A stretch of 64,000 bases of DNA from an uncultured delta proteobacterium (GTDB taxonomy: Bacteria; Myxococcota_A; Polyangia; Polyangiales; Polyangiaceae): assembly GCA_963696385.1 (NCBI GenBank), contig CAVOKF010000001.1, positions 128,001 through 192,000 of the forward strand, read 5' to 3'. Under the pieces are notes generated by a model. That model saw only the letters and a list, made by a program, of their open reading frames with translations, was not told where the DNA came from and did not search any database. The position numbers were made by a program, and so were the translations under genes. Positions 3,337 to 17,254 of this stretch are shown one piece after another (within the stretch, counting starts at the first letter, position 1; each line of letters opens with the position of its first letter).

Positions 3337-6393
<3,057 letters not shown>

Positions 6394-6394
6394 G

Positions 6395-6664
6395 TCAGCG
6401 GTACCCGTAGGGCCACCATAGGGCAGTCGCCATCCAGAGGAGTCCGACGAAAAAGATGACCCAAACGAAGTCGCCGCCCCACCCCCAGCGATAGTGGTCG
6501 GCCTCGGCGGGAGCTCCGCGGGCGGTCGCCTGCAAGTGCCGGCGACGCTGAAAGTAACTGGGGTAGGGGGGTCCCCATCTCCTGTATCCCCAGCCGTAAG
6601 TAACCGGAGAAGCGAACAGCAAAAGCATGAATACAAGCCACAGCAGCCACCAAGAACCCATCAT
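6395..6664 (-). CDS. Small Trp/Tyr-rich two-TM membrane protein (89 aa)
   Basis: MMGSWWLLWLVFMLLLF...WVIFFVGLLWMATALWWPYGYR; GGAGG SD; abuts the ATPase start. Confidence 0.75.
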   Translation of the reverse strand: MMGSWWLLWLVFMLLLFASPVTYGWGYRRWGPPYPSYFQRRRHLQATARGAPAEADHYRWGWGGDFVWVIFFVGLLWMATALWWPYGYR

Positions 6665-7540: not shown

Positions 7541-7882
7541 GGGGCTTCCGAGGCCGGGCACTCGGTAACGACCGTGGGGGCAACCCATTCGAGAATCCGG
7601 CGCTCGCCCGTGCAATCGCAAGTCCACTGCGAAGATGCAAATCGCCACACTCGAATCGCACGATTCACGCAGGCGTGGCAGATTGACTCAGTCGGTAGGG
7701 CGACCACGAGCGTGCGTCGAGTCTCCAGCCTGCAGCGCGGCGCACGGGGTCCCTTTCCCGGCACCGAGGACCACCGCCGGGCTACTTCCCATAACCCATC
7801 GGTCCGCATCACGATGGACGGCTGGTGCATCCCCCGCAGCGACCCGTTCGATTGCGCTGCCGGCCCGACGCCGGAGCGTGCC

Positions 7883-7898
7883 GGGCGTATTCATTGCT
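7883..7898 (+). promoter_or_regulatory. Candidate sigma54 promoter
   Basis: GGGCGTATTCATTGCT upstream of 7944. Confidence 0.45.
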
Positions 7899-7943
7899 TA
7901 TCGCGAGCCGGCCGCCGGCGAGCGGTCGCAAGGAGGTCCGTCG

Positions 7944-8474
7944 ATGGATACGAAGAGTGAACGGAACTGCGTGGCCATTTTCGCGCGGCATCAGGATGCG
8001 GAGGCCGCAATCCAGAATCTGCAACGCGCTGGCTTCGACATGAAGAAACTCTCGATCCTCGGTCGCGACTACCACACCGAAGAGCGCGCCGTTGGCTTCT
8101 ACAACGGCGGCGATCGCGTCAAGCACTGGGGCAAGCTCGGCGCGTTCTGGGGCGGCATCTTCGGCATTCTGTTGGCGCCGGCGCTGTTTTGGATCCCGGG
8201 GGTCGGGCCGATCTTGACCGGCGGCGTCGTTGGGTCCTTCCTGATGGGCACCGTCGAAGGAGCTGCCGTCGGCGCAGTGGTTACCGGCGGCGCGAGCGTG
8301 CTGGTGGCGGCGCTCACGGGCATGGGAATCCCAAAGGATAGCGTCATCCGGTACGAGGCCGCGCTCAAGGCCGACAACTACCTCCTCATCGCGAGCGGAA
8401 CCGCCAGCGAGGTCGAGCGTGCTCGCGCCATCCTCGCGGAGCGTGGAGGCCAGGTGCAGGTTCACGCGAACTGA
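7944..8474 (+). CDS. General stress membrane protein (DUF1269/17M-like), paralog 1
   Basis: GFDMKKLSILGRDYHTEE, WGKLGAFWGG, IPGVGP, GIPKDSVIRYE; AGGAGG SD; paralog at 37131. Confidence 0.8.
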   Translation: MDTKSERNCVAIFARHQDAEAAIQNLQRAGFDMKKLSILGRDYHTEERAVGFYNGGDRVKHWGKLGAFWGGIFGILLAPALFWIPGVGPILTGGVVGSFLMGTVEGAAVGAVVTGGASVLVAALTGMGIPKDSVIRYEAALKADNYLLIASGTASEVERARAILAERGGQVQVHAN

Positions 8475-8742: not shown

Positions 8743-10311
8743 ATGCTGCATTTGTTGCGGAATCCGCCTGCCGTCTTCTGGCCACGCTGGGTCTTTTTGC
8801 GCCTGCTCGGCGTCGTGTTTCTTTCCGCGTTCTACTCGCTTGCTTTCCAGATTCATGGGCTTCTGGGCCCCGAGGGGATCCTGCCGGCGGGCCCGTACCT
8901 CTCCCGCGTGGCGAAGGCCATGCCGGGCCTGCTCCGATTCTGGTACGCGCCCACGGCCCTGTGGTTCGGCGCGAACAATGCGATGCTCACGGCGCTGGTG
9001 GCCGTCGGGATCCTCTCGTCGGCGTTGCTCATCTTGAACGTGTGGCCGCGACTAACCCTGGGCATCGCGTGGCTTGCCTTTCTGTCTTTCGTCGGGGCCG
9101 CGCAGGACTTTGCGTCCTACCAGTCCGACGGGATGCTCCTCGAGGCGGGGTTCATCTCTCTGTTCTTCGCGCCTGCCGGACTTCGCCCCGGCCTGGGCAC
9201 GGCGCACCCACCGTCTCGCGCGAGCCTTTTTTTGCTCAGGTGGGAGTGGTTTCGCATCTACTTCGAGTCGGGCGTGATGAAGCTCGCGAGTGGAGACCCG
9301 TCGTGGCGCGATCTCACGGCGATGGATCACTATTACGAAAACGGGCCTCTGCCGACATGGATCGGGTGGTACGTGCAGCATTGGGGGCACCCGTTCCATG
9401 CGGCAACGGCACTCGGCACCCTCGTGATGGAGCTTGGCGTATGCTGGCTTGCCTTCTTTCCACGCCCTTTTCGGCTCGTCTGCTGCCTTCTCTGCACGTT
9501 GCTCCAAGTGGGCATCATCGCGACGGCGAACTACGGGTTTTTGAATTACATCGTCCTTTTCCTCGGCGTACTGCTTCTCGACGACGCGTGGTTCGCGTCC
9601 GTGCGACGGCGTTTCTCGACGCGGATCGCCGGGTCAATCGCAAGCCCCACTCCGGCAGAGACGTCGCGTCCGAAACCGACCCGGACCTTGACCTCGGGCT
9701 TGCGCCGGATGGTCGCCGTCATTTCCCTCGGCCTGGTCTTCTATTCGACCTTCGCCGTTTTTCTCTTTGCGGCCGTGCCGACGCCCTTCCGGTGGCTTCT
9801 TTGGCCCGCCGAGGCAATCGAGCCCTTTCGCATCGCCAACCGATACGGGCTCTTCGCCGTCATGACGCCCGCGCGTTACGAAATCGAGTTCCAAGGTTCC
9901 AACGACGAAAAGACCTGGACCGATTATCCTTTTCGCTACAAGCCGCAGGATTCGTTGGGTCCTCCGGGCATTTACGCGCCGTACCAGCCGCGATTCGAGT
10001 GGAACCTTTGGTTTGCGTCGCTCGGGTCTTGGCGGAGCTTTCCGTGGGTCGTCCGGACCGAAGCGTGCCTACTCGATGGCTCCCGTAGCGTCCTGGAGCT
10101 TTTTGCGCGCGACCCGTTCCCTACGCCGCCCAAGTTCGTGCGTGCCGTCGTGTGGCACTATCGGTTTACCGACGCGGCAACGAAGCGGGCGACGGGAGCG
10201 TGGTGGCGGCGCGAAGAGCTCGGCCTCTACTGCCCCGAGCTCGAGAAGGACGCAAGGGGCATCATTCGGACGGTCGGGCAGCAACCCCGGGAAGAACCCA
10301 ATCCCGAGTGA
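8743..10311 (+). CDS. Lipase maturation factor (LMF) family membrane protein
   Basis: FLRLLG, GPEGILPA, DGMLLEAG, SGVMK, YYENGPLPT, NRYGLFAVMT, EIEFQGS, YPFRYKP, APYQPRFEWNLWFA. Confidence 0.88.
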   Translation: MLHLLRNPPAVFWPRWVFLRLLGVVFLSAFYSLAFQIHGLLGPEGILPAGPYLSRVAKAMPGLLRFWYAPTALWFGANNAMLTALVAVGILSSALLILNVWPRLTLGIAWLAFLSFVGAAQDFASYQSDGMLLEAGFISLFFAPAGLRPGLGTAHPPSRASLFLLRWEWFRIYFESGVMKLASGDPSWRDLTAMDHYYENGPLPTWIGWYVQHWGHPFHAATALGTLVMELGVCWLAFFPRPFRLVCCLLCTLLQVGIIATANYGFLNYIVLFLGVLLLDDAWFASVRRRFSTRIAGSIASPTPAETSRPKPTRTLTSGLRRMVAVISLGLVFYSTFAVFLFAAVPTPFRWLLWPAEAIEPFRIANRYGLFAVMTPARYEIEFQGSNDEKTWTDYPFRYKPQDSLGPPGIYAPYQPRFEWNLWFASLGSWRSFPWVVRTEACLLDGSRSVLELFARDPFPTPPKFVRAVVWHYRFTDAATKRATGAWWRREELGLYCPELEKDARGIIRTVGQQPREEPNPE

Positions 10312-10677
10312 GCCACCATGCAGCCGTCGCGCCACGCGAGTCCGTCAAGCACCGAACGGCGGACTCTGCCGCTCCTCGGCGCTTGCGCGCTCAGCTCGAT
10401 CTTTGAGCTCTTGGGCGGAAGCCTCAGCTCGCTCCGGGGAAGCCGATTCCAACGAAAGAAGGCAAAAGCACCCATGAAGCACAACGCGCGTTGCGCAGCG
10501 GCGCGACCGGCCGGCGAGGTCGCGGCGGAGCTTTAGCTTGTTGGGCTTCGTCCATGAATGACGGAACGGAGTCGCTCTTGCCGATATCGAAGAAAAGTTC
10601 ATGGGCGCGCGCTAGTCCCGTTCGATGACCTACGGACGCGGAGCCTTCGGTGCTGCTCGTAAAGGGTCTCGCTAGAA

Positions 10678-10693
10678 TGGCATGAACGATGCA
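10678..10693 (+). promoter_or_regulatory. Candidate sigma54 promoter (tandem-HdeA gene)
   Basis: TGGCATGAACGATGCA, close to consensus. Confidence 0.6.
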
Positions 10694-10746
10694 GTGAATC
10701 GGATCGGATAATGCGGCCGTGGCCGCCTCAAAACAAGGAGTCCTCG

Positions 10747-11643
10747 ATGCGCCATTCGATCGTCTTCTATGTTGCGTTGGTCGCCGCTCCTCTCGGTATG
10801 GCGTGTGAGAAGGCAGGCGTAGAGGGACACGCGGACGCCAACAAATCGGACACGACGGTAGGCGCGGTTTCGTCGAATTCTGCGAAGGCGCTCGAAGACT
10901 ACCGCCACCAGAAGCAGACCGACCTCGAGTCGCTCGACAAGAGCATCACGGACCTGGAAGCGAAGGAGAAGGTCGCTGCCTCGAACGCCAAGATGGACCT
11001 GGACCGCTTGCTGCCTGCGCTCAAGGTACGGCGCGACGCGTTCATGAACGATCTGCGCGCGATCGACGCCACGGGCGCCGCGACTTGGGACTCGACCAAG
11101 GCACGCCTCGACAAGGAATGGGATGATCTCAAGGCGGCGACCGACAAGGCGACGAGCGTTGCGACTTCAGCGTTTGCAGCCACTCACAAACCTGGCGAGA
11201 TGACCTGTGCGGACTTTCTTGCGCTCGCTGACGTTGAAAAACCCAAGATCGTTTACTGGGCTGAAGGTTTCAACAAGAATGGCAGGGCGATCGACTCAGC
11301 CTTCGACATCGTTGAAACAGACCGATTGGTGCCCGTACTCGTAGCGGAGTGCGTGAAAACTCCAAAGGAATCGCTGTCGAAGGTAGTCCAGCAGCATCCC
11401 TCCGCGCCGAAACCGGCGACTGCGGCGAAACCGGCAAAAATGACGTGCGAGGAGTTTGTCGCGCTCGAGGACGTCGCAAAGCCAAAAGTCGTCTACTGGG
11501 CCGAAGGTTTCAACAAGGATGGCAAGGCCACCGATGCGGTCGTGGATATCGATGAAACGGATAGGTTAGTTCCCACGCTCATTAGGGAGTGCAAAGAGAC
11601 GCCCAAGCTCACGCTCTGGCAGAAAATCAAGAAATACTTTTGA
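10747..11643 (+). CDS. Lipoprotein: coiled-coil plus two tandem HdeA-like acid-chaperone domains
   Basis: AAGGAG SD; lipobox LGMAC; two repeats KPxxMTCxxFxALxDVxKPKxVYWAEGFNKxG...xECxxTPK, each with the HdeA-type Cys pair. Confidence 0.8.
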   Translation: MRHSIVFYVALVAAPLGMACEKAGVEGHADANKSDTTVGAVSSNSAKALEDYRHQKQTDLESLDKSITDLEAKEKVAASNAKMDLDRLLPALKVRRDAFMNDLRAIDATGAATWDSTKARLDKEWDDLKAATDKATSVATSAFAATHKPGEMTCADFLALADVEKPKIVYWAEGFNKNGRAIDSAFDIVETDRLVPVLVAECVKTPKESLSKVVQQHPSAPKPATAAKPAKMTCEEFVALEDVAKPKVVYWAEGFNKDGKATDAVVDIDETDRLVPTLIRECKETPKLTLWQKIKKYF

Positions 11644-11699
11644 GGTCCGCCGGCCGAGTCACCGCACGGCCGATTTGGCTTCGATCGCGGCGGCGCGGT

Positions 11700-13484
11700 T
11701 CAGTCTTCGAAAATCTCCATACCGTCCGCGATGGCTTCGACGATGTGGGTTTTGGTCACGACCCCGCGAAACCTGGGCGCCCCATCCATCCGCTCGCCTT
11801 CGGTCGTGACCACGACAGCGAGATCGGCCTGGACCCGTTGCATGGCCGCGATGAGATCGAAAAGGGTCGTCCCGCTGCCGACCTCGACAAAGTCGTGGCG
11901 GACAACGTCCGCGAGGGACGTCGCCGCGAGGAGCGCGTCAGGGTGCTCTCGGACCCACTGTCGCGAAATGACCCCGACAATGTTTTCGCCGTCCACGATC
12001 ACCCAGTAAACGGGCCCCTCGGCTTGATCGTCGATGATCCGGAGCTCCGCAGCGGCCGTGGGAGGAAGTGCCGCTGCGGTCGCCATCGCCATGTCTGCGA
12101 CATGATGGACGAGGTACGCGTTCGCCTGGAGCGCTTCGGGCATGACGTGGCCGCGACGCGCGAGTTTCATCGTGTAGATGTTCTGCTGGAGGAGCAGCCG
12201 TCGCAAGCCGTGACTCACAGCCACGGTCAGCGTCATCGGGAGAACGACCGAATAGTCGAGTGTCATTTCGAAAGTCATCACGATCGCGGTCAGCGCCGCC
12301 CCCGTTGCGCCGGCGACCAGGCCCGCCATCCCCGCGAGGGCCAACGCAGCCGGATCGAACGGAAGTCCGGGGAAGAGCCCGTGCAGACATCGGCCGAACG
12401 CCCCTCCAAGCGTCGCGCCCATGAACAGCGAAGGAGAAAAGATCCCGCCCGACCCCCCCGACCCGAGCGTAAGCGACGTCGTCAGGAGCTTGAGCCCACC
12501 GAGAGCGACGAGCATCCACACGCTCGGAAGGGCACCCTTCAGGACATCGCCAATCGTCGCATACCCGACCCCTTCGACATAGTAATGGCCCCAGAACACC
12601 ATCGCGGCCTCGATCGTCAGGCCCACGCCGAGGGTGCCGACGATGTGGCGGGCGTAGTCGCCGCCGATCCACTTCTCGAACAGGTCTTCGGCGCCGTAGA
12701 GGGCGCGGATGAATGCCACCGCGACCCACGCCATCCCCGCGCCCAATACGACGTATGCGGGCAGCACCCCCACCGTCATCGACGCATGCACGGGAGGAAC
12801 CGTAAACGCCGGAGCGTCGCCGAAGAGCCTTTGGCCAATGAACGTGGCCGTTGCGGTCGAGAGCGCCACGGGTACGAGCGTTCGCACGCTGACTTCGTGC
12901 ATCAAGACTTCCACGGCGAAGAGGACCCCTCCGAGCGGTGTGTTGAACGTCGCGGCGATGCCGGCGCCTCCCCCCGCGGCGACCAGCGTCGCCCGCTGCC
13001 ATCGCGAGACGCGCGCGATGCCTCCGATCCACGAGGCGAAGGCCGCACTGATCTGGACAATGGGACCCTCACGCCCGACCGATCCTCCGCTTCCGATCGA
13101 AATGGCCGACGCCACGGATTTGACCGCCGCGACGATGGGTCGGATGACGGCCTTGCCGTAGTAGATGGCGTCCATCACTTCCGGCACGCCATGTCCCCTC
13201 GCCTCGGGGGCGAAGTTCTTGACAAGGAAGACAACGACGATGCCGCCCACGACCGGTGCCAGTACGATCGCCGGTCCCCAAGGACTCGGCGGCGTATGCA
13301 GACTGGTGTCGTAGCGAACGGAGAGATGCCCGAGAAAAAAGAGGTTGTGGATGAGGCTGATCAGCATCCGAAAGGCGTACGCCCCGAGGCCGGCGGCGAC
13401 GCCCAGAAGCACTGCGAGACACGAGAACGCGAACGGGCCCCGGGCCAAATGCGCGTCGGCGACGAGGCGCCTGGGCGCATGCAT
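11700..13484 (-). CDS. CLC (EriC) chloride channel/transporter with CBS domains, copy 1
   Basis: GHGVPE, GREGP, FNTPLGG, GGIFSP, NIYT, C-terminal CBS-like pair; start uncertain (13484-13604). Confidence 0.9.
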   Translation of the reverse strand: MHAPRRLVADAHLARGPFAFSCLAVLLGVAAGLGAYAFRMLISLIHNLFFLGHLSVRYDTSLHTPPSPWGPAIVLAPVVGGIVVVFLVKNFAPEARGHGVPEVMDAIYYGKAVIRPIVAAVKSVASAISIGSGGSVGREGPIVQISAAFASWIGGIARVSRWQRATLVAAGGGAGIAATFNTPLGGVLFAVEVLMHEVSVRTLVPVALSTATATFIGQRLFGDAPAFTVPPVHASMTVGVLPAYVVLGAGMAWVAVAFIRALYGAEDLFEKWIGGDYARHIVGTLGVGLTIEAAMVFWGHYYVEGVGYATIGDVLKGALPSVWMLVALGGLKLLTTSLTLGSGGSGGIFSPSLFMGATLGGAFGRCLHGLFPGLPFDPAALALAGMAGLVAGATGAALTAIVMTFEMTLDYSVVLPMTLTVAVSHGLRRLLLQQNIYTMKLARRGHVMPEALQANAYLVHHVADMAMATAAALPPTAAAELRIIDDQAEGPVYWVIVDGENIVGVISRQWVREHPDALLAATSLADVVRHDFVEVGSGTTLFDLIAAMQRVQADLAVVVTTEGERMDGAPRFRGVVTKTHIVEAIADGMEIFED

Positions 13485-13628
13485 CGCGCGAACGGCACCG
13501 TGGGTCGACTGAACGGTCACCGACGGTGAGACCTTGACGTTACCGGGCACCGCTGGTCGGCCATGCACGGTCGCGCGAGCGAAACACCTCGGGCACGGTA
13601 GCACACCACGTCCCTCCAGCGGGACCGT

Positions 13629-15056
13629 TCACGACCGCGACCGTGCGATGGACTGGCTCGTCGCCCACGCCAGGAGAGCGGCCCCAAAGCATGGCGCGAG
13701 CGCCGCAAGCGATCGCAGCGCGACCCGAAAAACCGTCGTCCCACACCCGGAGTGCGCGAGGTGGACCACAGACCACACCGCATCCACCGCCGCGGCTGCC
13801 GTGGTGCACGCAAGACGCGCCGGGCGGGGACGTACCGCGCTTCGGAAGAGCTGTGCAGCGAGCAGCAGGTCAAATCCGATCCAGGCGATGAGAATGTCGC
13901 GAGAGACCCCCGATTCGTTCGAGTAACCGAATGCGACCAGCCCAGCCAGGAGGCCTATCCATGGCACCAGGGGCAGGGCGAGCACCAAAGGCGGTGCGCT
14001 CGGGTGGCGCGCGATCGAACGCAGGGCAAACGCAAGCAAGGAGCCCCCCGCAAAGGCGCGCAAGGATTCGACGACGTGCGCGGTCGGGCACTCGCCGTTC
14101 GGGAATACGAGCCACACGTCTTGCCAAAGGCAGGGTCGCAGTCGCTGCTTGAAGGCATGAAGCCCGTAACAATCGTAAAGAGGCCGGAAAATGAACCGGG
14201 CGCATCGCAACCAGTACGACACGGGGCCGGCCAATGGCGCGAGCCCGAGCGTGACAAATGCGCTGTCGCGCGATTCGCACATCATCGTATCCAGGAGCAA
14301 CTCGGTCGTGCCGTTCGGCGCTCGCCGGCTCCGCACGATGTCCTCCACCAACCAGCCCCGCGTCGCATGAATCGGCACGGCCGAAAGAAACTCGACGATT
14401 CGCCCATCCCACTCCGCCACGTAGTACCGATGGTCGCAGGGCACGTGAAACGGCTCGACCGAGACCAAGAAGGCCATCGGCGCGATGTGACGCGACGCCA
14501 ACCATTCCTTGGCGAGCGATTCCACTTCGGACCGCAACGGTGAACCGCGATCCAGCTCGCCCGCATCCATGCGGCGAACGCGCACGCCCTTCGCTTTGGC
14601 GCGTCGGATTTGCTCGCGGAGGCTCCGATGCTGGCCCCGTTTGGCGATCCACTCTGCGGGCCGCCAAAGGGGCTGCTGACCGAGCAGAAGGGACGCAAAG
14701 CCCTCGATGTTGGAGGTCTCGGTTGCAAAAAAACACGCGCTCCGGCCGTTCGCCTTCGCGCTGCATAGAAATGCCATGGCCGCATTGGAGACGCACGACG
14801 CATCCACCAGTGGCCGCCCAGCCGCAATCCACGCACGCCCGCTGTCCACGTACGCCACGCACGCTCGGTCCGTACCCATCGAGCCCTCGTCGAACCAGTA
14901 ACGCATGCCCGATTCGACGGAGAGGAACGACACAGCGTCGGCGCCGAACCGCCGCAGCAGAACAAGGAGCCGTTCGCGTTCGCGCAAGCGCGTTTCGAGG
15001 GAACCTCGCGTTCGGATTTCGCCGTCGCCGTTGCCTGAGAAGCCGATCGCGTGCAC
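13629..15056 (-). CDS. DUF2156 / MprF C-terminal-like aminoacyl-PG synthase domain with C-terminal TM helices
   Basis: WIAAGRPL, LREQIRRA, APNGTTELL, VTLGLAPL, YxxxGLHAFK; hydrophobic C-terminus. Confidence 0.75.
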   Translation of the reverse strand: MHAIGFSGNGDGEIRTRGSLETRLRERERLLVLLRRFGADAVSFLSVESGMRYWFDEGSMGTDRACVAYVDSGRAWIAAGRPLVDASCVSNAAMAFLCSAKANGRSACFFATETSNIEGFASLLLGQQPLWRPAEWIAKRGQHRSLREQIRRAKAKGVRVRRMDAGELDRGSPLRSEVESLAKEWLASRHIAPMAFLVSVEPFHVPCDHRYYVAEWDGRIVEFLSAVPIHATRGWLVEDIVRSRRAPNGTTELLLDTMMCESRDSAFVTLGLAPLAGPVSYWLRCARFIFRPLYDCYGLHAFKQRLRPCLWQDVWLVFPNGECPTAHVVESLRAFAGGSLLAFALRSIARHPSAPPLVLALPLVPWIGLLAGLVAFGYSNESGVSRDILIAWIGFDLLLAAQLFRSAVRPRPARLACTTAAAAVDAVWSVVHLAHSGCGTTVFRVALRSLAALAPCFGAALLAWATSQSIARSRS

Positions 15057-15324: not shown

Positions 15325-17254
15325 ATGACGGTGCCTGGAAACGGCGAAGTGCCAGCTCGTTCTGCGGGTCTGCGGCCGTTGAGAGGAATCGTGACCCGGG
15401 CGGTCGATTCGAGCGAGCCACTCCGGTGGCCTCCAACTGCTCGGGCGTACGCTCCTGACCGCGGCGCTCGTGGGGGTCGCGGCCGGCTTGGTCGGATCCT
15501 TCTTCTATGCCGGTGTCGAAATCGTCGAACGGATCGTCCTGGAGCGCTGGTGCGGATACGTCCCGCTGCGCGCCGCAGGTGAGCCGGTCGCGCGAGCGAC
15601 CGCCGAAGCTCCGTTTCGGGGCTGGCTCGTCTGGTTGGTGCCCGCCGTCGGCGCCCTTGGGGCCGGCCTCATCACTCGGTTGGCGCCGGAGGCGCGGGGC
15701 GGCGGCGCGGACGCCATCATCGAGGCCTTTCACTCGCACCGCGGACTCGTCCGGCGGCGCGTTCCGCTCGTCAAAGCCGTCGCGTCGATTCTAACCCTCG
15801 GATTCGGTGGATCCGGCGGTCGCGAAGGGCCGACGATGCAAATGGGCGGCGGCATCGGATCGGTGATTGGCCAATATCTTCGCGCAACCGATCGTGAGCG
15901 GCGCGTTTTGCTCGTGGCGGGGACCGCGGCGGGCATGGCTGCCGTGTTCCGAACGCCGCTCGGCGCGGCCTTGCTCGCGGTCGAAGTGCTGCACCGGGAC
16001 GATTTCGAGGCCGAAGCGCTCGTCCCGTCGGTTTTGGCCAGTGTGGTCGCCTACTCGGTCTTCATTTCCATTTTTGGCGAGTCGACGCTATTCGTACACG
16101 CTGCCAAGTACCCGTTCGTTCCGCAGCACCTGCCGCTCTATGCGCTACTCGCCGTCCTCGTCTCGGCCATTGCGGCGATGTTCCTGGTCGTGCTGCGCAC
16201 GACGCAGGCGTACACCGCAAGGGTGCGGATCGCCGATTGGGCGAAGCCCGCCCTGGGTGGGCTTCTTCTCGGCGCAGCGGCCGTGCCGGTGATCCTCTTC
16301 GTAGGTCGGCAACTCGGGCGCGACGGAATGGGACTCGGAATTCTGGGCGGCGGCTACGGCGCAGCCCAACTGGCGATCACAGGAGCCCCTTGGTTTCCGG
16401 GCGGCTGGCGCGCCGTGGAGCTCCTGGTCCTACTCGGCTTCGCCAAGATCTTTGCGACTGCGCTTACCGTGGGAACCGGCGGAAGCGCCGGGGACTTCGG
16501 TCCATCGCTCGTCATCGGCGGCATCTTCGGGGGAGCGTTTGGTCGAGCGGCCCAACTGTTGCTTCATGACCCGCGAATCGATCCCGGCGCATTTGCGCTC
16601 GTCGGGATGGGAACATTCTACGGGGGACTGGCCCATGTCCCCATCGCATCTCTCGTCATGGTGTGCGAACTCACAGGCAGTTACGACCTGCTCGTGCCGC
16701 TGATGCTGGCCAACGGGGTGAGCTTCATCGCGCTCCGCAATCGCTCGCTTTACCACGCGCAGCCGGCGACGCGCCGGGACTCGCCTGCGCATCGCGGCGA
16801 GCTCATTCTCGACGTCCTGCGCGACATACGTGTCGGCGACGTCTTGGTGAAGGGGCGCCCGTACGCGGTCTTCCAGGCCACTGCTCCTGCCACCGAGGTC
16901 ATTCACGAAGTAGCCGGTGCACAATGGCAAGACGTCTTTCCGGTGATCTCGTCGAACGGAGCGGTCGTCGGAGTGATCACGAGCGACATCCTCCGCACGA
17001 TTGTACAAGAACCGAGCATTGCCGAATGGGCGATCGCGCACGACATGATGCTGGCTCCAGTCATCGTGCACGACAGCGCCGATGTGAGCAGCGCGCTCGA
17101 AATTTTGCTCTCGCACAGCGCCCGAGAAGTCGTGGTCGTGGACGACGATGGACACATCGTCGGCTTTCTCGACGAAGCCGAGATCTCGCGCCTGCACCAT
17201 CGATCGACACACGCCATCGACCTGTCCGACCGATCCGTCACGGGGGCCCCCTAA
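15325..17254 (+). CDS. CLC chloride channel/transporter with CBS domains, copy 2 (probable frameshift near 15425)
   Basis: GGGAD, GREGP, FRTPLG, AGDFGP, SLY, CBS pair. The CLC frame has a stop at 15392 and no ATG/GTG/TTG before 15470; an ATG at 15325 lies in a neighbouring frame. Confidence 0.85.

Follow-up and report, generated by a model that had tools for sequence, protein, structure and literature searches.

In a 64,000-nucleotide window of DNA from an uncultured delta proteobacterium of the Polyangiaceae (contig CAVOKF010000001.1, positions 128,001 to 192,000), to which the coordinates below refer, we analysed a 298-codon open reading frame (ORF) at 10747–11643 on the + strand. It encodes a putative lipoprotein of 298 amino acids (aa), composed of a type II signal peptide, a Sll1863-like domain and two consecutive HdeA domains. 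On the sequence evidence, this fusion is a real, conserved architecture of known parts, related to HdeA/HdeB (PF06411) but not canonical HdeA; with its length of 298 aa and its three domains, it is not of the small, soluble, single-domain HdeA homodimer type. The fusion architecture is apparently undescribed: no account of tandem or anchored HdeA was found in the open-access literature (subscription papers and architecture databases lay outside that search), in agreement with the initial annotation, which had not recognized the architecture as described. We propose, at what we judge an even chance of being right, that the protein acts as a periplasm-facing, tethered, ATP-independent and acid-responsive holdase, which would open by release of a latch rather than by dissociation.

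Both domains were recognized by the Pfam HdeA profile, each alone above the cut-off of 22 bits: domain 1 (residues 147–215; 11185–11391, + strand) with 50.8 bits and domain 2 (residues 228–298; 11428–11640, + strand) with 66.2 bits. The linker between them (residues 216–227; 11392–11427, + strand) is also the N-terminal tail of domain 2. The domains are identical at 41 of 72 residues, compared with a maximum of 14 in 10,000 shuffles, and share the motifs MTCxxF (residues 152 and 232) and EC (residues 201–202 and 281–282). The NCBIfam HdeA equivalog NF007576 gave 106.3 bits as the sum of both domains (cut-off 85; single domains, 47.3 and 60.7), while the HdeB equivalog NF008599 gave 59.4 bits, below its cut-off of 124. 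In pairwise comparison, domain 1 scored 25.2 bits against HdeA vs 12.4 against HdeB, and domain 2 36.2 vs 25.0. The best solved relative of the HdeA part was Escherichia coli HdeA (E=6.9e-7). A structure model of the tandem matched 1bg8 (E. coli HdeA) at the top of 48,161 chains, with Z 8.4 and a root-mean-square deviation (rmsd) of 1.7 Å over 73 residues; HdeB structures followed behind HdeA at Z 5.8–6.5. Foldseek also ranked HdeA first, but with E=0.015. The two similar HdeA-like domains proposed in the initial annotation are thus borne out by profile and by fold.

To define the family, we combined 87 clusters at 90% identity with the 150 best matches out of 484 representatives at 50% identity, giving 234 distinct proteins, the query included. 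Among these were 37 proteins with the Sll1863–HdeA–HdeA order, two cut-off versions of it, 58 tandems without Sll1863, 60 proteins with one HdeA domain (some of them fragments) and 77 with Sll1863 alone (a few of them truncated fusions). The covalent tandem that had been noted as unusual is therefore real, but it is not special to this gene, given the 58 tandems of other proteins. The names of the homologues in the databases are hypothetical or generic HdeA labels. The residue counts given below are from 34 fusions of one alignment, numbered against E. coli HdeA; with 22 nearer tandems added, this alignment has 56 rows.

The signal peptide and lipobox lie at 10747–10806 (+ strand), with Cys20 (10804–10806) as the predicted lipidated residue on the basis of conservation, sequence pattern and the N-termini of homologues. 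The lipobox, L-G-M-A-C20, comes after a basic start and a hydrophobic stretch, and has Gly at position −3 instead of the canonical Leu. Cys20 is present in 32 of the 34 aligned fusions, the other two being gaps. The residues at +2/+3 are E-K, against mostly D/E-K in the family, where +2 is D in 15 and E in nine of the 34 fusions. Using the PROSITE lipobox pattern, we obtained matches to its relaxed form in 32 and to its strict form in 24 of the 37 three-domain proteins; of the five relaxed misses, two have no N-terminus and three keep the Cys. The strict pattern was matched by only three of the 58 soluble tandems. Genes for Lgt and LspA are present in the genome. These results strongly suggest that the fusion protein is a lipoprotein, exported and lipidated at Cys20, as the signal read in the initial annotation had implied. 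Because lipoprotein sorting rules differ between species (PMC3222651), the +2 residue does not fix the protein to the inner or the outer membrane.

Lipid Cys and folded domain are separated by a variable tether (residues 21–36; 10807–10854, + strand), for which the predicted local distance difference test (pLDDT) is below 50 at residues 26–34. In the alignment, the longer (about 163-aa) stand-alone lipoproteins have a helix behind the lipid Cys of which the fusion lacks some 25 residues. The Sll1863-family domain follows at residues 37–143 (10855–11175, + strand). It matched NF052504 with 44.1 bits (cut-off 35) at residues 50–137, covering model positions 3–90 of 93, and is predicted to form an antiparallel three-helix bundle with helices at 37–76, 79–108 and 111–143 (40, 30 and 33 residues). 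The coiled-coil of about 100 aa suggested earlier is this Sll1863-family domain. A long coiled-coil stalk was rejected, since the model gives three antiparallel helices of 30–40 residues in a compact bundle, which would act as a spacer of about 45–60 Å. A fold search with this domain returned antiparallel three-helix bundles, for example 9rgv (Z 11.5, rmsd 2.2 Å, 93 residues), which are unspecific; the best Z of 12.5 belonged to generic helical bundles and is within the unspecific range, so no function follows from it. A search of the ESM Atlas yielded only hypothetical proteins, at values below 0.9. Stand-alone lipoproteins of about 140–165 aa can be aligned over their full length with the signal peptide and Sll1863 domain of the fusion (48% identity over 161 columns to P0091), and by this alignment the spacer domain was probably inherited from a common stand-alone Sll1863-type lipoprotein. 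Sll1863 itself is described as a general stress protein, strongly salt-induced, whose inactivation has no salt phenotype (PMC8670252).

Several residues expected of an HdeA-type protein are conserved. All four disulfide-type cysteines are invariant in the 34 fusions and the 22 tandems, and DsbA-like and VKOR genes are present in the genome; each HdeA domain very probably forms its own disulfide, C154–C202 in domain 1 and C234–C282 in domain 2. The equivalent of HdeA E37 is kept in 34/34 fusions in domain 1 (E173) and 29/34 in domain 2 (E253). The equivalent of D51 is D187 in 34/34 in domain 1, and at D267 it is D in 33 and E in one; that of D47 is kept in 30/34 (D183) and 29/34 (D263). The position of D20 is acidic in 33/34 in domain 1 (position 156, here D156) and 27/34 in domain 2 (here E236). 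In E. coli HdeA, K5 pairs with D51 of the partner subunit (10.1101/390104). K222 in the linker aligns with this K5 and is kept in 32 of the 34 fusions. In the tail of domain 1, on the other hand, Lys is missing from the positions of both K5 and K10 (three Arg at the latter), and domain 1 is also without the W82-bearing end of helix 4. The latch therefore looks uneven between the two domains, because the tail of domain 1 is without the K5/K10 lysines while the linker keeps K222. The median isoelectric point is 5.3 in the 34 fusions vs 8.4 in the 22 nearer tandems.

One further pair of residues points in another direction. Y170-W171 and Y250-W251 are invariant in 34/34 fusions and align with W55-W56 of HdeB, and the MTCxEF of the fusion is an HdeB-type motif. 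These observations raise an alternative, which we consider possible although unlikely, namely that the domains stay folded and packed through a Tyr-Trp cluster, binding clients by mobile loops at pH 4–5 without unfolding or release of a latch, and with the link making the active dimer permanent. Peat is usually only moderately acidic, which would suit such a clamp. HdeB works as a folded dimer at pH 4–5 (PMC4655364), and its W55-W56 pair, loss of which monomerizes HdeB, fills the groove that the HdeA dimer uses (PMC3299563). Against this alternative, both domains score closer to HdeA than to HdeB, the cross-pairing of tail and site I in the model follows HdeA, and the conservation of K222 is what a K5 latch predicts.

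The acid-responsive holdase opened by latch release draws on the predicted packing of the domain pair. AlphaFold2 modelled the whole chain (81 sequences) with pLDDT 83, a predicted template modelling score (pTM) of 0.58 and a disordered tether, and the tandem alone with pLDDT 87 and pTM 0.81, the two domains being packed on each other. The strand letters of the full model pair as 153–209 and 233–289 (within domains), 175–181, and 146/147–266/267 and 227–186 (across domains); bridge partners were derived from the strand and bridge letters, and the only symmetrical pairing is that of 146–147 with 266–267 and 227 with 186. In this model, each N-terminal tail would sit on the other domain's equivalent of HdeA residues 49–52, which in E. 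coli HdeA touch the partner subunit at its N-terminus (10.1101/390104). The predicted domain packing is consistent with the pattern of the E. coli HdeA dimer, whose helices 2 lie nearly parallel. When the two domains were given as separate chains, the complex test returned weak support with a score of 0.58, the best of three controls scoring 0.00; the mark of this test was reached by 116 of 157 solved and two of 215 mismatched pairs, and at 0.60 or less by only 18 solved pairs together with both mismatches. The runs agreed in no less than 83% of contacts, and the partner pLDDT was 75 or more. The single-chain pseudo-dimer of the initial annotation is accordingly favoured by the intramolecular prediction, and only weakly by the test with separate chains.

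That weak two-chain support is also what might be expected if the domains paired between molecules, as domain-swapped dimers or chains on the membrane surface, with no single-chain pseudo-dimer. A membrane anchor raises the local concentration, and up to 55 residues separate the cysteines in related soluble tandems. The single chain nevertheless closes on itself in the tandem model. Moreover, the C202–C234 spacing is 32–36 in 34/34 fusions and 33–55 in the 22 related tandems, and is below 32 in none of the 56 rows, as expected if the linker must bridge an intramolecular distance. We regard pairing between molecules as improbable.

With the single-chain holdase as the preferred reading, the following course of action can be proposed. 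Export, lipidation at Cys20 and formation of one disulfide per HdeA domain would come first, and are strongly suggested by the conserved residues. At neutral pH, the domains are predicted to fold onto one another in a single chain that imitates the HdeA dimer, with client site I of each domain covered by the tail of the other. By analogy with E. coli HdeA, acid would protonate the conserved D47/D51-type acids, release the tails and loosen the interface, and the hydrophobic patches then exposed would hold denaturing envelope proteins close to the membrane. Since the linker keeps the halves joined, closing and client release would be independent of concentration. More speculatively, the site of domain 1 would be held by K222 of the linker while that of domain 2 would lie under the tail without K5/K10 lysines, and one site may open in mild acid (pH about 4, peat-like), the other only at lower pH. 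The main contribution of the Sll1863 bundle would be its lipoprotein signal and the distance of about 5 nm that it spans, with a holdase role of its own being possible. A bolder form of this proposal, in which the halves of a whole class of single-chain pseudo-dimers (soluble ones in several groups of bacteria, lipid-anchored ones in myxobacteria of peat and soil) are specialized as a two-step pH sensor and the Sll1863 bundle offers a second holdase surface beside the membrane, seems to us doubtful. If true, a single protein would serve the pH ranges for which E. coli uses HdeB and HdeA separately, and HdeA-type activation would need no monomer release.

The initial annotation had emphasized that the two halves cannot diffuse apart. 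The linked chain agrees with this, but the paradox that it seemed to pose for an HdeA-type protein is weaker than it appears, as the first activation step of HdeA needs no dissociation (10.1101/390104) and HdeB is active at pH 4–5 without it (PMC4655364). HdeA lacking its first nine residues has partial activity at pH 4, and release of the tail opens site I without dissociation (10.1101/390104).

The gene itself is supported by its frame, the profile scans and the structure model. The ATG at 10747 as the start is backed by a Shine-Dalgarno-like AAGGAG at 10735–10740 (+ strand), 6 nt before it, and by the N-termini of homologues; an in-frame ATG at 10711 was judged less likely. A metagenome DNA contig from a peat run of another study (X5) covers 9240–13239 with 20 differences and one gap outside the ORF, and locus L030 encodes the same protein at 98% identity, which argues that the fusion gene is not an assembly artefact. 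An RNA-library contig (run X15) covers 10727–11719 without differences, its study possibly being the source of this DNA, and among the pieces listed from the peat RNA runs X17 and X18 none spans the ORF, while runs X19 and X20 had small shares; such contigs show neither level nor strand and cannot rank genes by expression. Neither a sigma-70 promoter nor a terminator above chance was detected in 10250–11800, and no Rfam match was found in 1–30000 of the window. The domain part had also been described as richer in AT than the 5′ part, and this difference is real but modest: the GC fraction is 0.538 in the HdeA part vs 0.619 in the 5′ part (Fisher p=0.018), and 0.66 vs 0.78 at third positions (p=0.028). 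Some homologous genes, such as those at L037–L039, show it less strongly or not at all. AT richness as a sign of recent transfer was not established, the difference being modest and fading in these loci.

Selection and phylogeny bear on how the fusion arose. Compared with nine divergent homologous genes, the ratio of nonsynonymous to synonymous substitution rates (dN/dS) was 0.31–0.67 for the N-domain and 0.06–0.28 for the HdeA domains, indicating purifying selection on each of the three domains. When the joined HdeA domains from 18 of the 37 fusions were placed in a tree with those from 31 of the 58 tandems (LG+G4 on 144 columns, rooted at the midpoint), the fusions formed one clade (Shimodaira–Hasegawa-like approximate likelihood ratio test, 88.8; bootstrap, 95) nested among soluble tandems, the deeper branches being weak. 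This position indicates that duplication probably came first and was followed by a single fusion event. The partners joined would have been an Sll1863-type lipoprotein of myxobacteria and a soluble HdeA tandem, for which the deeper branches name no donor. Two stand-alone Sll1863-type lipoprotein genes occur in this genome (C1:88827–89306 and C4:966570–967052), and such genes are common in the genus, with 11 of 16 genomes matched. The gene at C1:88827 adjoins genes for glycogen phosphorylase, phosphoketolase and aldolase; occurrence of both parent gene types in the same kind of island would offer a simple route to the fusion.

A tree of single domains (FastTree, 72 columns; filtering for redundancy at 72% left 144 of the 260 unique domain rows) resolved little; it contains a hint of another, separate lineage of tandems (support 96), which does not prove repeated duplication. 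The soluble tandems (P0039–P0063, P0067–P0087 and others; loci L004–L010, L025 and L043–L047) fall into at least two sequence groups. No longer or other fusions were found among 8000 candidates of 612–2000 aa, which is weak evidence, and all 30 matches of 274–2000 aa were proteins already in the 90%-identity search. P0012 (518 aa) was rejected as a further fusion: an unrelated N-terminal part is followed by a complete internal signal peptide, and we treated it as a gene-calling read-through. In P0193, a single HdeA domain comes after an extra N-terminal segment resembling LysM by eye, which may be another means of fixing HdeA to the envelope.

The faster evolution of the N-domain, the greater number of soluble tandems with an ordinary signal peptide (58 vs 37 fusions) and the patchy, decaying occurrence of the gene would also fit an anchor and Sll1863 domain that are mere passengers, the fusion having only supplied an export signal to a tandem HdeA acquired by transfer; the working unit would then be the tandem, which may be released from the membrane. 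Cys20 and the three-helix domain are kept, however, across fusions that are only 46–65% identical, and the length of the junction is almost fixed; we hold this explanation to be very improbable.

The fusion gene is, by the genomes searched, rare, patchy and accessory. No other HdeA gene was found in this genome, no HdeA in 150 other genomes of the family and no second full-length match among 400 genomes of the order, many of the genomes in both sets being incomplete. Matches were obtained in 45 of the 400 order genomes, and among the rows listed almost all cover the Sll1863 part only. In the genus, two of 31 genomes carry HdeA, both with a two-domain match in a frame of about 325 codons; the order and genus counts include the unpublished genomes G444 and G390. 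A deltaproteobacterial genome with a RecA 90% identical also carries the fusion, the RecA of one Polyangiaceae genome being 75% identical; by these RecA matches the host is most probably a myxobacterium of the class Polyangia. Remnants truncated at the 5′ end, without signal peptide or N-domain, were found at L146:1123–1650, L041:295–765 and L042:4256–4726. Near-identical DNA was detected in nine peat metagenome DNA runs (nine study codes), each with at least 74% of words; these were counted apart from three possible source runs, one soil run of the possible source study and one unlabelled run, and studies of the same year may be one campaign. One Polyangiaceae genome has soluble tandems, as do Nitrosomonas and further Pseudomonadota. 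From acid soil, a Methylobacter genome with HdeA homologues has been described (PMC6119699); it was recovered here as well, with a single-domain HdeA gene (L026).

Next to the fusion gene lie several genes for ion transport and the envelope. Within 7.5 kb are a type IIIA proton-efflux ATPase, DoxX, YflT, LMF1, two CLC-CBS proteins and an MprF C-terminal protein. The plasma-membrane proton-efflux P-type ATPase (3337–6636, − strand; TIGR01647, 1063 bits, cut-off 615.5) is listed with an ORF that is probably over-extended at its 5′ end, and has a long C-terminal tail of repeated Pro-Lys-Pro-Glu-Gly-Lys-Ala-Glu-type units. Profile scans assigned a CLC chloride channel/antiporter with a CBS domain at 11700–13604 (− strand, convergent on the fusion gene), an MprF C-terminal (lysyl-phosphatidylglycerol synthase-like) domain protein at 13629–15056 (− strand) and a second CLC-CBS protein at 15470–17254 (+ strand). 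The MprF-type protein is without the usual N-terminal flippase part and has a short hydrophobic C-terminus; a homologue adjoins the fusion in L033. Both CLC-CBS proteins keep GREGP and the Glu of the [FL]AVEVL motif, and have GHGVP and GGGAD in place of the usual GSGIP motif; this change may alter their anion selectivity. In L146, the remnant of the fusion is followed by the same CLC gene as the one at 11700–13604.

Across the window, 53 genes were called, of which 38 were scanned in the main neighbourhood profile search and most others in another. Beyond the nearest genes, they include isoamylase, KGG, two multi-BON, universal stress protein (USP), four OmpA-domain, PPK2, glycogen phosphorylase, PRC and band 7 genes, and transposases. 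Positions 182–63761 of the window, and about 88–240 kb of contig C1, form a large island for stress and low-energy survival, which besides the genes just named has phosphoketolase, aldolase, glycogen phosphorylases, two YflT, two BON and four OmpA genes, a MoxR/VWA/BatD cluster and transposases. A stretch of 570 bases at 7858–8429, with most of the YflT-domain gene, is missing from the peat runs X5, X17 and X18, showing that strains differ inside the island. At eight other fusion loci of at least 6 kb, a homologue of the ATPase (81–91%) was found in four, aldolase in four and phosphoketolase in three, counts that are inflated because L041/L042 and L037/L038 are near-duplicate pairs, L041/L042 hold the remnant only and L003 was the source of the queries for aldolase and phosphoketolase. 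Type IIIA of the neighbouring ATPase was confirmed for L003 and L041. Of the 11 tandem loci, six hold both phosphoketolase and glycogen phosphorylase.

This gene content suggests a different role, that of a general envelope-stress or dormancy protein, acting as holdase or membrane protector in starvation, low oxygen or salt stress and not gated by pH. Neighbours in the window and related loci (USP, BON, PRC, KGG, YflT, PPK2, glycogen phosphorylase, isoamylase, phosphoketolase and aldolase) speak for it, as do the general, strongly salt-induced nature of Sll1863 (PMC8670252) and the presence of the gene types USP, nitroreductase and cation ATPase in the lxa low-oxygen locus as in the island (PMC3721108). 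The acid-sensing residues, in contrast, are among the best conserved positions, and the closest recurring neighbour is the proton-efflux ATPase; such a role appears rather unlikely to us.

Several observations nonetheless weigh against the acid-responsive holdase. Identity to E. coli HdeA is only about 25%, and parts of the HdeA interface are lost: G34 is replaced by Tyr in all 34 fusions and by Tyr or Phe in all 56 rows of fusions and tandems, F28 by E, D or Q in domain 1, the D43 lock has become Gly, and K10 is also lost. Given the Tyr-Trp pairs at the HdeB W55-W56 position, the packing may be HdeB-like or new. The pTM of the full-length model is low, and both packing predictions may reflect likeness to the solved HdeA dimer. 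Four of the eight fusion loci are without the ATPase, the eight including two near-duplicate pairs, and in the genus 11 of 31 genomes have the ATPase above its cut-off, compared with the two that have HdeA; it occurs without HdeA. By its gene content, the island is at least as much a dormancy, glycogen and low-oxygen kit as an acid kit, and the fusion gene is often lost or broken (L146, L041/L042).

All parts of the fusion come from known families, the gene is rare and accessory, and its function is deduced. HdeA is the textbook case of a chaperone that becomes active when its dimer dissociates and unfolds, while the share of dissociation in this, and the action of HdeB as an intact dimer, are unsettled (10.1101/390104; PMC4655364). 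A natural single-chain HdeA, anchored or not, separates dissociation from the other activation steps without engineering, and the soluble tandems are the simplest material for such questions. HdeA-type protection would be extended from gut bacteria to peat and soil bacteria, if the function deduced here is correct, and the fusion gives a first functional hint for the Sll1863 stress family.

Among known systems, the lxa locus of Burkholderia cenocepacia resembles the island as a clustered stress and persistence kit with USP, a cation-transporting ATPase and storage-polymer genes (PMC3721108). The likeness is one of description, not gene by gene, and no mention of HdeA came up in the available part of that source, at which no search for it was aimed. 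The Sll1863 family (NF052504) and the stand-alone lipoproteins share the signal peptide, lipobox and domain alignment with the fusion; in the fusion, however, a shorter helix follows the lipid Cys, and the chain runs on past the domain into the tandem HdeA. E. coli HdeB (NF008599; 2xuv, 2myj) belongs to the same Pfam family and has the same monomer fold, the MTCxEF motif, an aromatic pair at W55-W56 and a known action without dissociation. It differs in that the fusion reaches 59.4 of the 124 bits of its equivalog, scores lower against HdeB than against HdeA in pairwise comparison and is a single, putatively anchored chain.

E. coli HdeA (PF06411; NF007576; 1bg8, 1dj8, 5wyo) is like the fusion in its fold, its C18–C66 pair and its periplasmic export. 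The equivalents of E37, D47, D51, P30, P60 and K11-P12 are kept in the fusion, that of K5 lies in the linker, and the cross-pairing of the tails over site I is predicted for it as well. Unlike HdeA, the fusion has two domains per chain, a predicted lipid anchor and the extra Sll1863 domain; Tyr replaces G34, Met replaces W16 and neither F28 nor the D43 lock is kept. Its halves have diverged, with a loop N-K-x-G-K in domain 1 and N-K-D-G-G in most copies of domain 2, and it is a single gene without an hdeB or hdeD partner, in a soil and peat myxobacterium. The soluble HdeA–HdeA tandems of 170–200 aa, for which no family name was found, have the same two-domain unit, 50–65% identical in the nearer group, and adjoin similar glycogen and phosphoketolase genes. 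They differ from the fusion in having mostly ordinary signal peptides and longer, more variable linkers, and in being more basic.

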